A DNA stretch of 64,000 nucleotides from Candidatus Heimdallarchaeota archaeon (GTDB lineage: Archaea > Asgardarchaeota > Heimdallarchaeia > Heimdallarchaeales > Heimdallarchaeaceae), in contig JAHLWR010000003.1 of assembly GCA_019057815.1 (NCBI GenBank), forward strand, positions 164,553 through 228,552, read 5' to 3'. Positions 18,946 to 33,720 of the stretch are shown here, piece by piece. The notes under the pieces are model-generated. The model had not been told where the DNA came from. It was given only the letters and a program-made list of their open reading frames with translations, and did no database searches. Numbering within the stretch: position 1 is the stretch's first letter; every line of letters starts with the position of its first letter. The translations under genes were made by a program, and so were the position numbers.

Positions 18946-18999
18946 CTAGTGAAAGATGAGGATTCAGAATTTAGAATTATCCCATGATATGATTTTGTC

Positions 19000-19135
19000 A
19001 TATTGGCATATAACAAGCACTTCATTAGAGTTTCATCGCTGGATAGCTCACTCTAAGGGGGTAAACCACGTACCCTCCTACCCCGCCCACACTACGTTTA
19101 GGTAGCGCTTGCGAATCGCCTTTAAGTAAAATGTT
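19000..19135 (-). ncRNA. cis omega-RNA overlapping the tnpB 3' end, with putative guide at about 19019-19000
   Basis: hairpins gcgctac/gtagtgt, gggta/taccc, ttagagt/actctaa, then TGAAG; boundaries approximate. Confidence 0.65.
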
Positions 19136-20284
19136 GTAAGCAGCATTAACATCAGCGTTGATTAACAAACCTGTTGCAGAACGAAACAGTCCTCGGTGCA
19201 CTCTCTTCCCCTTATACTTGGTCTGTTCCTGGGGTGACTCATTGTCTAGAAAACTACATTTAGAGGTATACTCCTCTTCAATAGGTTCAACCTTTATCCC
19301 TTTCTCTTCTGCTTTGTATTGAAGGATTTTGATGAGTTTTTCAAAAGGAATACTGACAAAAATTTGTGTAGTCTTCTTTCTCAACCTCAGTTGCTGTTTC
19401 CAGAGAGGATTGTAACCGATGTAAACGGTGTGTAAACCCCTAGTTTCCCAGAGGTCAACGAGGAACTTGCTCACCTGATGTAACCAATCTTTCACCTTCC
19501 ATCTCCAGTGTTGACGATAAAGTTGGAAACGATTACCATAGTGTAACTTGTTCTTTTGACGTAACTGTTTGTGTTGCTGCAACGCATACTGCTTCTGTAA
19601 CTTTTTCACTTCTTTCATATAAAATTGATTGATGGATTTTATCCCTTTCCCCTCGTCCTTGATGACAATCGGACGCGATCCGATGTTATCCACGAAAGTC
19701 ACGAGGTTGATGGATCCTAAATCGATGGAACCTTTTCTACTTTTTTTCTTTCTAATTGCTTTGGGAAGATGTTTATGATAGACAATCTCGAAGGTGTATC
19801 CTATCCCTCTGGGGATGACACGTACCTCTCGTAAATTATCTAGTGACGTTAAACGTGTCTTGATAGTAAACTTAACTTTTTTTGGCAATATCACCCACCC
19901 ATTGACAATTTTCGCTTGTTGGTTGCTGAAGATAGCTATAGTCTCCCCTGAAGGTTTCTTGAAATAGGGAGAGCAGGGACAACTGAGAAATTTGCTAGGT
20001 TGTCTCTTCCACTCTTTAATAGCTTGGAAGTAAGCTTTCCAGTTTCTTGACAATAATTTAAGTGTGAGTTGAGCGGTGTGAGCTGGTAAAAACTTGTAAC
20101 ACTGCTCTCCTTTCAATATTCTATCTAGGTCATTGTAAAATAGTAATTTGTTGTTTTTCTTCAACTCTTCTTTTATCAGAAAGTTTCCTCGATTATAGAG
20201 GTTCTTAGTTTGATGGCAAAGCTTGCTTAACTCCTTATCTTTTCTTACTTCCATTATTTCTGTACGCAAGACTTTGTTCATCAT
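19025..20284 (-). mobile_element. tnpB: solo TnpB (IS200/IS605 OrfB, IS1341-like) RNA-guided endonuclease
   Basis: KNLYN, SIDLG (RuvC-I), IGYNxxWKQ, IPF..LQYKAE, EEEYTSK, NADVNAAYNI (RuvC-III); GC content visibly higher than neighbours; no tnpA adjacent. Confidence 0.92.
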
Positions 20285-20302
20285 AATCTTGATTTGTTTT
20301 CC

Positions 20303-20312
20303 CTATATAAAC
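20303..20312 (-). promoter_or_regulatory. TATA box of tnpB
   Basis: GTTTATATAG about 20 bp before the start codon. Confidence 0.55.
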
Positions 20313-20333
20313 TCAGAAGAAATTAATATGACA

Positions 20334-21137
20334 TTATGACAAATTCAACCCATAAAAATTACATACATTTTCTGTTGTTATTCGAGCTAATTCTTCATTT
20401 TTCATCTGTTTTAGGTCTGCAGCATGTTTACAGAGAATCGATATAGCCGAAGGCTCATTGTTTTTTCCTTGTTCTAACGAATGAAAAGGGCTATCTGTTT
20501 CAAACATGAGATTTCTAGGGGGAATGAGATCTATTTTCCTCTTGTAATTTTTCCTGTAAACAGCACTTGTTGGAACTGAAATGAACCATCCTTCTTCAAC
20601 TATCTGCTTAACTTGTTCATCTGTACCATCGAAACAGTGCATCAAGACATCCTTAGCATTCATTTCTTGCAGAATTTCGATTGCATCTTTTTCCGCCTTC
20701 CTTGAATGGATAACAATTGGTTTTTTATTTTCTAAAGCGAATTGTATCAACTTATGTAAGTTTATTCTCTGTTTTTCTTGTTTTAAAGACTCCTTAGTCC
20801 AATGATAATCTAATCCTATTTCTCCAATAGCAACAATCTTGTCTTTGTTTGTTCTAAAATATTTAGTAAATGTATTGAAATCTTCTTCTGATACTGAAGA
20901 AGGACCTAAACCTAGAGACAAATACACTCCTGGAAATTCTGTGGTTCTAAGTCCAAACTCATAATTATCAGCTGAAATTGCACTATTTATGATTATTTTT
21001 ACGTTTTTACTTCTAGCTCTCTCAATTACTGCTTCAATTTGGCTAAATTTAAACCATGGTGGAAGTAAGTGGCAATGAGCATCTGCAAAGATTATATCAT
21101 TTTCTCCGGTTTTTATTTCAATATTTGGATTTTTCAT
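20334..21137 (-). CDS. tatD: TatD family nuclease
   Basis: DAHCHL, AIGEIGLDY, IHSRKAE, MHCF, ETDSPF. Confidence 0.92.
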   Translation of the reverse strand: MKNPNIEIKTGENDIIFADAHCHLLPPWFKFSQIEAVIERARSKNVKIIINSAISADNYEFGLRTTEFPGVYLSLGLGPSSVSEEDFNTFTKYFRTNKDKIVAIGEIGLDYHWTKESLKQEKQRINLHKLIQFALENKKPIVIHSRKAEKDAIEILQEMNAKDVLMHCFDGTDEQVKQIVEEGWFISVPTSAVYRKNYKRKIDLIPPRNLMFETDSPFHSLEQGKNNEPSAISILCKHAADLKQMKNEELARITTENVCNFYGLNLS

Positions 21138-30614: not shown

Positions 30615-32399
30615 ATGAAAACTAGTTTATTAGTACGCGGATTTATAGTATTAGCCTTGTTATGGGGTATGATCTATGGTCTTATCATAGGTGCATATGC
30701 ACTTATTTTGTACTTTGGTTCCCAAGAAGCGGCTCTTGGAACATTATTATTCACCTGGATTCCTGTTCTAATTGCGCTAGGGATAATTTTTCTGCAATTC
30801 CTAATATCACCTTGGTTACTTGATCTCAGTTTTGGATGGATGCACAAATTAACATGGATTCAGCCAGATCAACTTCCTCCGCATCTTGCTAAATTTGTAG
30901 CAGAACAGTGTCAGATTCACGGGATTTCAATTAAGAAAGTCGGAATGATTCACGATCAAATGCCTCAAGCTTTGACATATGGGAGATTCAAGAAAAGTGC
31001 AAGAATAGTTCTATCAGATGGTACTCTTAACTTGCTCACTCCTAAAGAACAGATAGGTGTTGTTGCTCATGAAATTGGTCATATTGCTCACATGGATTTT
31101 CTGTTTATGACACTAGCCTCAGCTGTCCCTATGATTTTGTATGTGTTTTACATTTTCAGTCGAGGTTTTGTTCGTGCAATGGCTATATCTTCCAGAGGTA
31201 GTAGAGATAGTAGAGGAGCAGCTGCAATGATGGCTGCTGCTGCTGCTGCAATGGTAATTAGCTATGTCTTCTATTTCATTAGCCAATTCCTAGTTCTATT
31301 CTTGAGTAGAGTTAGAGAATATTATGCTGATAGATTTTCAGGAGAAAATACAAATGATCCTAAAAGTTTGTCCACTGCTTTAGTTAAAATTGCCTATGGT
31401 ATGGTCAAATCACAAAGCGCATATGCTATTCAAATGAATGATAAAAAAACTGACAAACGAGTAAGAACTACTTATTACAGAAGAAATGGTTTTGTTAACG
31501 CGACTAGATCTTTAAACATTTTTGACATCAAAGCAGCTAATTCTTTAGTAATGACAGCTTATGCTCAAACAGCTGAAGTTACAGCAGAGGCAGTAGTAAA
31601 AGCAGCTGCATGGGATCTAGAAAGTCCATGGGCTGGTTTTATCGAACTTCAATCAACACACCCTCTAGCAGCAAAAAGATTACTCGCTCTTGACGATTTA
31701 TCAGTAGAACTTAAGCAACCTAAAACTTTTCCAACTTTAGGTACTGACCAAATAAGAGAGTCTTTATGGAACGAATTCTTAGTAGATCTATTTCTAATGT
31801 ATTTTGTCCCAGCTTTAACAATTATACTTCCAGGAGGAGCAGCACTTGTAACATACTTCTATTATCCACAATATATTATGTGGTACGCTATAGGAGGAGG
31901 TTTGGCTATTTCTGGATTGCTTTGGCTATGGAGACTACGTATTAGATATCCAAAATTAGATCAGGATTTGCCGTTGATTAACATAATGGGTGCCGTAACT
32001 GACGTTTCAGACGATGGATATGCTGAAGCATCACCATTTAGAGGAAAACCAATTCTTTTAGAAGGAACGATAATTGGTAGAGGTTCCCCAGGATATTATT
32101 TCAGCGAAGATGTTGTTTTGCAAGATCCATCTGGTATAGTAGTTTTGGATTACAATCCAGCATTTGGATTTATGAGATTCTTTACAGCTATTTTCAGAGT
32201 TGAAAAAATGATTGGATCAAAAGTGAAAGCTGTTGGATGGTATAGAAGAGGACCTAGACCAACCGTTATGATAAAACGAATACTTAGAAAAGATGGTTCC
32301 ACATTTGGTTCAAATAGGGACTTCTTTAACAAAATATTCATTGGTCTACTATTCTTAGTAGCTTTAATATGTGTATTTTATGGCATCGGGTTCTTCTAA
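30615..32399 (+). CDS. htpX: HtpX-like M48 zinc metalloprotease with C-terminal extension
   Basis: HEIGH, SRVREYYAD, STHP, multiple TMs. Confidence 0.88.
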   Translation: MKTSLLVRGFIVLALLWGMIYGLIIGAYALILYFGSQEAALGTLLFTWIPVLIALGIIFLQFLISPWLLDLSFGWMHKLTWIQPDQLPPHLAKFVAEQCQIHGISIKKVGMIHDQMPQALTYGRFKKSARIVLSDGTLNLLTPKEQIGVVAHEIGHIAHMDFLFMTLASAVPMILYVFYIFSRGFVRAMAISSRGSRDSRGAAAMMAAAAAAMVISYVFYFISQFLVLFLSRVREYYADRFSGENTNDPKSLSTALVKIAYGMVKSQSAYAIQMNDKKTDKRVRTTYYRRNGFVNATRSLNIFDIKAANSLVMTAYAQTAEVTAEAVVKAAAWDLESPWAGFIELQSTHPLAAKRLLALDDLSVELKQPKTFPTLGTDQIRESLWNEFLVDLFLMYFVPALTIILPGGAALVTYFYYPQYIMWYAIGGGLAISGLLWLWRLRIRYPKLDQDLPLINIMGAVTDVSDDGYAEASPFRGKPILLEGTIIGRGSPGYYFSEDVVLQDPSGIVVLDYNPAFGFMRFFTAIFRVEKMIGSKVKAVGWYRRGPRPTVMIKRILRKDGSTFGSNRDFFNKIFIGLLFLVALICVFYGIGFF

Positions 32400-32438: not shown

Positions 32439-32462
32439 TAATCAAAGCCTTTAAGTTATATG

Positions 32463-32635
32463 ACATGAATTTTGTACAAATTCTTTAAAAGTGCCTGGGG
32501 CACATCATGGGGACGCCACATCCCCCCTACCCCGCCCACATCTTCATGCAAAGATGCTTACGGTTCGCTTTTGGGTGGTTGTTGGATGTAGACCCGAGGA
32601 TAGCCATGAAGTTGGTGAATATCTACAATCCTTCA
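32463..32635 (-). ncRNA. stand-alone omega-RNA-like ncRNA homologous to the tnpB 3' scaffold
   Basis: 15-nt identity cctaccccgcccaca (32526-32540 vs 19077-19091); equivalent hairpins with compensatory changes; own GTTTATATAG TATA at 32655-32664; no TnpB coding sequence. Confidence 0.75.
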
Positions 32636-32748
32636 AAGGATATTCTATACGACACTATATAAACACTAAAAAAATGCATAAAAAACATATTATAACAGCA
32701 AAGTTAAATATTAACAAAAAGAGATGAAAATCAATTCTGGTGAAAACT

Positions 32749-33720
32749 ATGGCTAGCGAAAAAGAAAAAACCGCAGACAAAGCCGAAAAAAAAGATGAAA
32801 TTGTTGAAGAAGAAAAAGAAGAAAAAGAAGAAACTATTCTTGAGAAATATCAAAAAGCTGGAGAAGTAGCAAAAAATATTCTTCAACATATAAAAGAAAT
32901 GGCTAAACCTGGAGTAAAAGCATTGGATTTATGCGAAACTGCTGATAAAATGATTGAAGAAGCAGGAATGAAAACAGCCTTTCCATTAAATGTTTCAATT
33001 AATAATCATTGTGCTCATTATACGAGCTCTTTTGATGATCCTCTAGTATTGAAAGAGGAAGATGTAGTTAAATTAGATATTGGCGTTCGTTATGATGGTT
33101 ATATTGCAGATACAGCTCTCACAGTAGCATTTAATGATGTTCATAATGATCTAATAAAAGCAAGTAGAGAAGCCACAGAAACAGCTGTAAAAGTTATTCG
33201 AGCAGGTGGTTATACAGGAAAAATCGGTGATTTGACAGAAAGTATCATTGAAGGATATGGTTTTACGACTATCAAGGAACTTTCTGGTCATCTTTTAATG
33301 AGAAACAAAGTTCATGGGCCCAAAGTTATTCCAAATGTATCAGGTCAGAAAGGTCAATTGATACTACAAGATGAAGCTTTTGCAATTGAAACCTTCGCTT
33401 CAACTGGAGCTGGAAGATCAAAGCCGGACAGAACAAAACTTTTCATAGTGAAACTTGCTGAAGGAAGATTTCCATTAAGAACAAATGCTGCAAAACAAAT
33501 AAGAAGAGTGTTGGATAATGAGTATGACAAATTGCCAGTTGCTACACGATGGTTGTACAAAAGATTTGGAACAGCAAGAGCTAAAATGGGTATTAGGGAA
33601 CTGAAAAATGTAGGGGCTATTCTCCAATATCATGTTCTATGCGATGTTTCAGAGGCATTTGTTTCACAACACGAACATACAGTTTACATAACTGCTGAAG
33701 GTCCAATACAAACAACATAA
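32749..33720 (+). CDS. map: methionine aminopeptidase, type II
   Basis: AFP..S.N..AHYT, KLDIG..DGYIAD, LSGH, AIETFAS, SQHEHT. Confidence 0.93.
   Translation: MASEKEKTADKAEKKDEIVEEEKEEKEETILEKYQKAGEVAKNILQHIKEMAKPGVKALDLCETADKMIEEAGMKTAFPLNVSINNHCAHYTSSFDDPLVLKEEDVVKLDIGVRYDGYIADTALTVAFNDVHNDLIKASREATETAVKVIRAGGYTGKIGDLTESIIEGYGFTTIKELSGHLLMRNKVHGPKVIPNVSGQKGQLILQDEAFAIETFASTGAGRSKPDRTKLFIVKLAEGRFPLRTNAAKQIRRVLDNEYDKLPVATRWLYKRFGTARAKMGIRELKNVGAILQYHVLCDVSEAFVSQHEHTVYITAEGPIQTT

Follow-up and report, generated by a model that had tools for sequence, protein, structure and literature searches.

Between htpX (30615–32399) and map (32740–33720), in a stretch of 64,000 nucleotides from Candidatus Heimdallarchaeota (hereafter the window), lies an intergenic island whose minus strand parallels the 3′ end of a tnpB gene in the same stretch. 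An earlier note had read this island as an orphan omega-RNA with its own guide, possibly loading TnpB in trans and intermediate between transposon systems and multi-guide Cas12-like systems. What is the element at this locus, from where does its RNA take a guide, and which enzyme moves it? Our comparison of copies and alleles indicates that it is probably a protein-less mobile element (mini-element, or mini) derived from an IS607-lineage tnpB transposon.

The mini-element and its tnpB relatives

The locus and its presumed partner in the window comprise the following features.

32460..32693, minus strand: complete, non-autonomous mini-element of 234 bp including both AT dinucleotides (homology limits among copies; empty alleles)
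18984..20353, minus strand: tnpB-only element of 1370 bp with AT-bounded inverted ends, candidate nuclease source (copy comparison)
19025..20284, minus strand: tnpB gene, 419 aa, with an intact rearranged RuvC (D188, G290, E337, D378; PF01385, PF07282, NF040570)

The motifs listed for the island in the earlier note were all recovered on the minus strand, including a 15-nt core identical in the mini and tnpB (32526–32540 and 19077–19091) and a TATA element that is the same in both (32655–32664 and 20303–20312). A 14-nt core pattern has exactly 2 matches in the window, as against 0.02 expected. The TnpB frame runs into a stop (KSEP*) and NADxN is absent, as had been described, and an Rfam search of the window gave zero matches. 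The interval previously assigned, 32463–32664, does lie inside the mini, but it leaves out the left end (32665–32693) and, on the right, the final 3 nt of the element.

The locus is not a single orphan, as had been supposed, but one copy of a dispersed family. This genome holds 10 full-length minis at unrelated sites and at least 2 partial ones. Minis were retrieved by DNA and covariance-model searches from 17 of the 30 further family genomes, spread over two genera, and from 0 of 16 genomes of other families; the covariance-model scan of this and related genomes, which had been proposed as a check, retrieved further minis and tnpB 3′ ends. The copies are mostly 226–237 bp long, with a median identity of 83%, and their architecture is uniform across dozens of unrelated sites in the two genera. 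Neither an effector gene nor a transposase gene is present in the mini, and its mobility is evidenced by the copies and by empty alleles. The same genome carries 11 intact tnpB copies of one clade, with a common layout and the same TTAT/TCAT junction as the minis. The window copy, running from 20353 to 18984, has 30-bp imperfect inverted ends, and the closest relatives of its TnpB are Ca. Heimdallarchaeota records, which bears out the earlier note's reading of the host as an apparent Asgard archaeon. This protein keeps D188, E337 and D378, and has a glycine at the canonical RuvC-II glutamate and an alternative glutamate 47 residues downstream.

At htpX–map, neither the sister species nor any other relative read carries the mini. 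The region upstream of map has received independent insertions of these elements in at least three lineages (L030, L039). The genome also contains many solo ends and decayed fragments of these elements, together with derivatives of 50–140 bp that apparently consist of both inverted ends only (C12:96120, C26:7323, C27:25605, C1:108067).

The omega-RNA and its predicted guide

The RNA of the mini is resolved into a promoter-like box, four helices and a pseudoknot, as follows.

32655..32664, minus strand: TATA-box-like element of archaeal type, with the predicted start at about 32635, just 5′ of the first hairpin (conserved in 53 copies; 10-mer identical upstream of tnpB)
32584..32631, minus strand: hairpin P1 with an inner stem, extra at the 5′ side, a clear counterpart lacking in tnpB-embedded RNAs (5/14 pairs changed on both sides)
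32532..32563, minus strand: scaffold stem P2 of the omega-RNA, corresponding by homology to the codons of tnpB that follow the last RuvC motif (5/11 pairs changed on both sides; same stem in tnpB)
32509..32525, minus strand: stem-loop P3, whose 7-nt loop forms a pseudoknot with 32460–32465 (comparative pairing)
32491..32503, minus strand: short hairpin P4, longer in tnpB elements (comparative pairing)

P1 and P4 correspond to the extra 5′ hairpin and the third hairpin of the earlier note, and P2, as stated there, differs in sequence between the mini and tnpB while its pairing is kept. The 7-bp stem with a 3-nt loop drawn in that note is better represented by the short stem P3, with a 7-nt loop that pairs with the last 6 nt of the element. 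Across 90 minis and tnpB elements, 534 of the 540 possible pairs of this pseudoknot are formed (best shuffle, 501; the automatic mini/tnpB labels misassign a few rows), and one of its positions is C–G in minis and U–A in tnpB elements. Pairing of ATGA after P3 with the terminal TCAT had also been considered, and was replaced by the P3-loop pairing, which is valid in minis and tnpB and covaries between them.

Across 53 copies, 97.8% of the cells of the fold are paired, 14 of 39 pairs have changed on both sides, and both pairing and covariation exceed all shuffles and slid controls. On a tree built from the same alignment columns, and hence not fully independent of them, 17 pair-keeping double changes (16 in retained helices) were counted as compared with 3.3 expected and a maximum of 12 in 5000 simulations, bearing out the earlier claim that RNA structure has been maintained without coding constraint. 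Paired columns change 1.7–2.6 times and loop columns 5–6 times, a stem rate of about one third of that in loops, and single changes keep pairing in 62% of cases versus 37% expected. By comparison, the fold of the window RNA as a single sequence is no better than shuffles (z −0.61), so that support for the structure is comparative. A covariance model made from minis only matches tnpB 3′ ends at 36–56 bits, and the mini scaffold is homologous to the RNA at the tnpB 3′ end, with which it shares stems and core.

P1 may have a role in RNA stability or loading, and it persists in a diverged orphan whose 3′ half is tnpB-like. This orphan (L353:1470–1735, genome G013) is a single case that combines the mini 5′ hairpin with tnpB-type 3′ hairpins and right end, and it is a possible intermediate between the two types.

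These data bear on whether the locus is a neutrally decaying, internally deleted tnpB copy devoid of RNA function, an outcome that the earlier note had itself allowed for. Decayed ends and fragments are indeed numerous in the genome and single-sequence folding is unremarkable, but the uniform 226–237-bp architecture and the compensatory changes at 83% median identity make this scarcely credible; the mini belongs to a selected, separately transposing family. Because the structure is under selection without coding constraint, the mini omega-RNA likely loads TnpB in trans, supplied by the 11 intact related TnpBs of the genome, which are presumably compatible with the mini RNA. Selection for transposition or for RNA stability could alternatively account for the structure.

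The earlier note had placed unrelated guides immediately after TRAAG. Copies of both element types, however, conserve that sequence through to TCAT (32460 in the mini; 18984 in the tnpB element), and thus neither proposed guide is a guide. A pseudoknot at the 3′ end of the scaffold is a conserved and required feature of TnpB systems (bioRxiv 2023.11.20.567912), which places the first guide base at 32459. The element end at TCAT is fixed both by this pseudoknot and by four pairs of empty and filled alleles.

32460..32483, minus strand: right end of the mini, conserved, closing with TCAT and holding the formerly proposed guide (least variable region, 1.2 changes per column)
32444..32459, minus strand: predicted true guide of the mini, taken from host DNA just past the right end, its length of about 16 nt being assumed from other TnpBs (differs in every copy)
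18964..18983, minus strand: host flank next to the tnpB element, its predicted true guide (copy comparison)

With the guide drawn from the host DNA that follows the right end, each copy would target its own empty site. Consistent with this, the only exact target of each mini guide is its own empty allele, and in an empty allele from a close strain (L408) the predicted guide of the window mini is present next to the left flank. Elsewhere in the genome, the window guide has no TAM-adjacent match with fewer than 3 mismatches in 16 nt, and for the ten mini guides searched, every TAM-adjacent genome match had at least 2 of 16 nt mismatched. The right-end pattern had no matches in viral contigs. In one genome (G024), a mini and a tnpB element (L063 and L119) at apparently paralogous sites have right flanks, and hence predicted guides, that are almost identical.

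We propose that transcription from about 32635 would run through the right end into host DNA and yield a scaffold of about 175 nt with a guide of about 16 nt. TnpB from the tnpB-only elements of the genome would bind this RNA, and the complex would cut the empty allele (TTAT followed by the flank), whether left by excision or present on a second copy of the chromosome; the filled copy would then serve as repair template and the mini would be regained. Such a mechanism, in which the guide matches the element's own empty site and thereby supports retention, is established for IS605 and IS607 TnpB (PMC10055086; bioRxiv 2023.11.20.567912). The mini would thus probably rely on borrowed TnpB for the defence of the site it occupies, a selfish strategy that is already known.

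A domesticated role for the minis, as a scattered set of multiple guides that the host or TnpB would direct at foreign DNA or at genes of the host, would accord with the strong structural selection, the promoter-like box in every copy and the presence of about 10 different guides for 11 intact TnpBs. The guides, however, are merely the host flank at each insertion, 0 of 10 has a TAM-adjacent genome target with fewer than 2 mismatches in 16 nt, and neither an array nor a repeat–spacer structure is present. Site turnover, as seen in the sister species and all other relatives read, which lack the mini at htpX–map, has already weakened this explanation, and we regard it as very improbable. For the same reasons of absent array and locally derived guides, the suggestion of an intermediate to multi-guide Cas12 systems falls away; nothing supports a domesticated or Cas12-intermediate system.

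Ends, insertion site and mobilising enzyme

How a mini without a transposase gene is moved is a question on which its ends and target site are informative.

32692..32695, minus strand: target motif TTAT, the predicted TAM, its last two bases forming the AT core (positional conservation)
32675..32693, minus strand: left end of the mini, an imperfect inverted copy of the right end, degenerate here (copy comparison)

Homology among minis begins at the AT inside TTAT and stops at TCAT (32693 to 32460 in the window). The bases preceding the AT are T at −1 in 43/44 and at −2 in 37/44 minis, and T at −1 in 21/21 and at −2 in 19/21 tnpB elements. The ends of both element types are imperfect inverted repeats of 18–30 bp, and no left-end hairpin was found in these elements. 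Exact pairs of empty and filled alleles are available for three minis and one tnpB element. In all four, the empty allele X-AT-Y corresponds to a filled allele X-AT-element-AT-Y, with the identical AT dinucleotide at both termini and in the empty target, and insertion is precise at the AT within (T)TAT without further duplication. These pairs fit equally a 2-bp recombination core, a 2-bp AT duplication and Y1-type TTAT/TCAT junctions. A 4-bp ATNN duplication was rejected, on the basis of 105 matches in minis versus 99 by chance (permutation test) and of an allele pair (L143) with different bases at its two junctions.

In the close strain L408, the site of the window mini is empty, with nearly identical flanks and the central two bases changed. 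Alignment of L408:575–590 with window 32455–32699 places these two adjacent changes exactly at the end of the TAM and the first guide base. In this one case, the change removes the TTAT motif while the local palindrome is retained, which is suggestive of escape from TnpB cutting or of a palindrome-preserving change. A decayed tnpB element of the sister species has its right end, oppositely oriented, at this very AT. One AT would seem to have received insertions in either orientation, which a symmetric 2-bp core permits.

In tnpB elements (e.g., window 20346–20353 compared with 18979–18985), the first five inner bases of the left end resemble the element's own right flank, with 55 matches versus 40 expected in 21 elements, in a comparison window chosen after looking; the likeness is absent in minis. 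It could reflect repair tracts or a junction-like target choice.

The TnpB relatives point to an IS607-type origin. Among 80 metagenome loci, serine TnpA lies directly upstream in 16 and Y1 in 0, the adjoining relatives having 39–45% identity. The Heimdall TnpB clade nests within these loci (FastTree), where the adjacent transposase is always a serine recombinase, and cyanobacterial relatives are IS607 elements with GG ends. That GG is not universal is shown by the genome itself, in which a bona fide IS607-type tnpA element has a CG core. We therefore consider an IS607-type serine recombinase, acting in trans by exchange over the 2-bp AT core, the most likely candidate for moving the mini. Different ends are present at those IS607 tnpA loci of the family that were inspected, and none of the Y1, serine recombinase and Cas1 loci across the family has ends of the mini/tnpB type. 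A search with the left-end pattern for a transposase element returned only minis or contig ends. The mini is without the second short repeat of tnpB ends, and so it may use another transposase.

Mobilisation as a Y1-dependent PATE of the IS200/IS605 family, with TTAT as the Y1 target and TCAT as the right cleavage site, would yield the same allele pairs without duplication; this genome contains two Y1 tnpA–tnpB elements, and TnpB with a rearranged site is also found with Y1 (PMC10530073). It is nevertheless quite unlikely, given the absence of a left-end hairpin, the ends that are inverted copies of each other, the unrelated hairpin ends of the two Y1 elements, the apparent use of one AT in both orientations, and the finding of Y1 TnpA in 0 of 25 draft genomes (72–92% complete) of genus g3, which is the richest in minis. 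The inverted ends of 18–30 bp could likewise mark a TIR MITE mobilised by a transposase of DDE or Cas1 type that duplicates 2 bp (AT); such a duplication fits the allele pairs equally well, and guidance of TnpB by the RNA might still take place. DDE-linked TnpBs with symmetric ends have been described, and Cas1–TnpB loci are known from Asgard archaea (PMC10691335). This, too, we hold to be unlikely, since a TA duplication of the IS630 type is excluded by empty alleles that are 2 bp longer than predicted, a search of the genome for a DDE_3 gene gave no match, such ends do not occur near Cas1 loci, and the TnpB relatives adjoin serine TnpA.

A second gene-less mini family of about 320–370 bp, with a promoter and a structured RNA (L022:1180–1502; C8:42394–42766, C20:11817–12187, C1:35383–35757), shares its ends with an IS607-type tnpA element and has a CG core; in L022 it is inserted into an AT-core mini. 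At L001:1363–3410 (C27:146–148.6 kb), downstream of an IS607 tnpA with stops lies a TnpB-like ORF of 652 aa; it has DIN/E/N-A-A-I-N motifs and a zinc finger, and its first 480 aa have no Pfam or NCBIfam match. Three solo small serine recombinases without an N-terminal HTH (L004, L005, L006) are not flanked by the ends described here, and one of them is conserved at about 80% across the family.

Comparison with known systems

Judged from its sequence, the mini would work like a stand-alone omega-RNA or PATE and descend from an IS607-type lineage, yet it lacks the defining hairpin ends of PATEs and departs from the GG core and absence of inverted termini of typical IS607 elements. The original examples of stand-alone omega-RNAs are reportedly IscB. 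Mobilised stand-alone omega-RNAs acting in trans have already been described (Altae-Tran et al.) and, as far as the summary in PMC10691335 goes, resemble the mini in carrying no effector or transposase in genomes that hold effector loci. The mini differs from those summarised there in its IS607-linked TnpB clade, Asgard host, AT core and extra 5′ hairpin, and in that trans action is predicted here and demonstrated there. PATEs often encode omega-RNAs that need TnpB in trans (Meers et al., PMC10055086). The PATE-like elements of Geobacillus IS200/IS605 are, like the mini, protein-less with both ends present, dependent on the TnpB of other elements, and supplied by the flank with a guide that serves retention (PMC10055086). 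By comparison, PATEs have hairpin ends recognised by Y1, whereas the mini has inverted ends and a distribution that does not follow Y1 TnpA.

IS607, IS1535, ISC1926 and CboIStron likewise have a 2-bp core in both termini and in the target without further duplication, and elements of this tnpA(serine)–tnpB family resemble the mini in the short motifs that recur at both termini, in the pseudoknot at the 3′ end of the scaffold and in a TAM that is the insertion motif (PMC6188088; bioRxiv 2023.11.20.567912). The core is GG in most members, including ISC1926. The mini is distinct in its AT core, its near-full inverted-repeat ends of 18–30 bp, as compared with the shorter inverted motifs of published members, and the absence of tnpA and tnpB inside. 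The TnpB2 or rearranged-RuvC TnpBs (PMC10530073; PMC10711439) show the same replacement of the RuvC-II glutamate by glycine with an alternative glutamate downstream as the window TnpB, which has DLG versus DPG in pro-Fanzors; a rearranged RuvC alone does not assign the transposon family.

Since the concept of a mobile stand-alone omega-RNA is already published, the mini is not a new kind of RNA-guided system, and a literature search of partial coverage retrieved no paper on Heimdallarchaeia TnpB minis. Setting it apart from the published systems are the IS607-lineage TnpB, the AT rather than GG core, the near-inverted ends in place of Y1 hairpins, and the added conserved 5′ hairpin. More tentatively, and with appreciable doubt, these features may define a hitherto undescribed AT-core, near-TIR branch of Heimdallarchaeia TnpB whose transposase is neither canonical IS607 nor Y1 TnpA, and in which the dedicated 5′ hairpin would let a separately promoted RNA load TnpB without excision from tnpB mRNA, such that one nuclease pool with some twenty guides would select against empty alleles.

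With more than 50 copies and more than 40 tnpB partners, this well-sampled natural set defines the scaffold, the pseudoknot, the TAM and the first guide base for one clade of Asgard TnpBs. Its omega-RNA, selected after loss of the reading frame, opens trans-loading to direct tests. The AT core and the inverted ends suggest a transposase specificity that has so far gone unrecognised.
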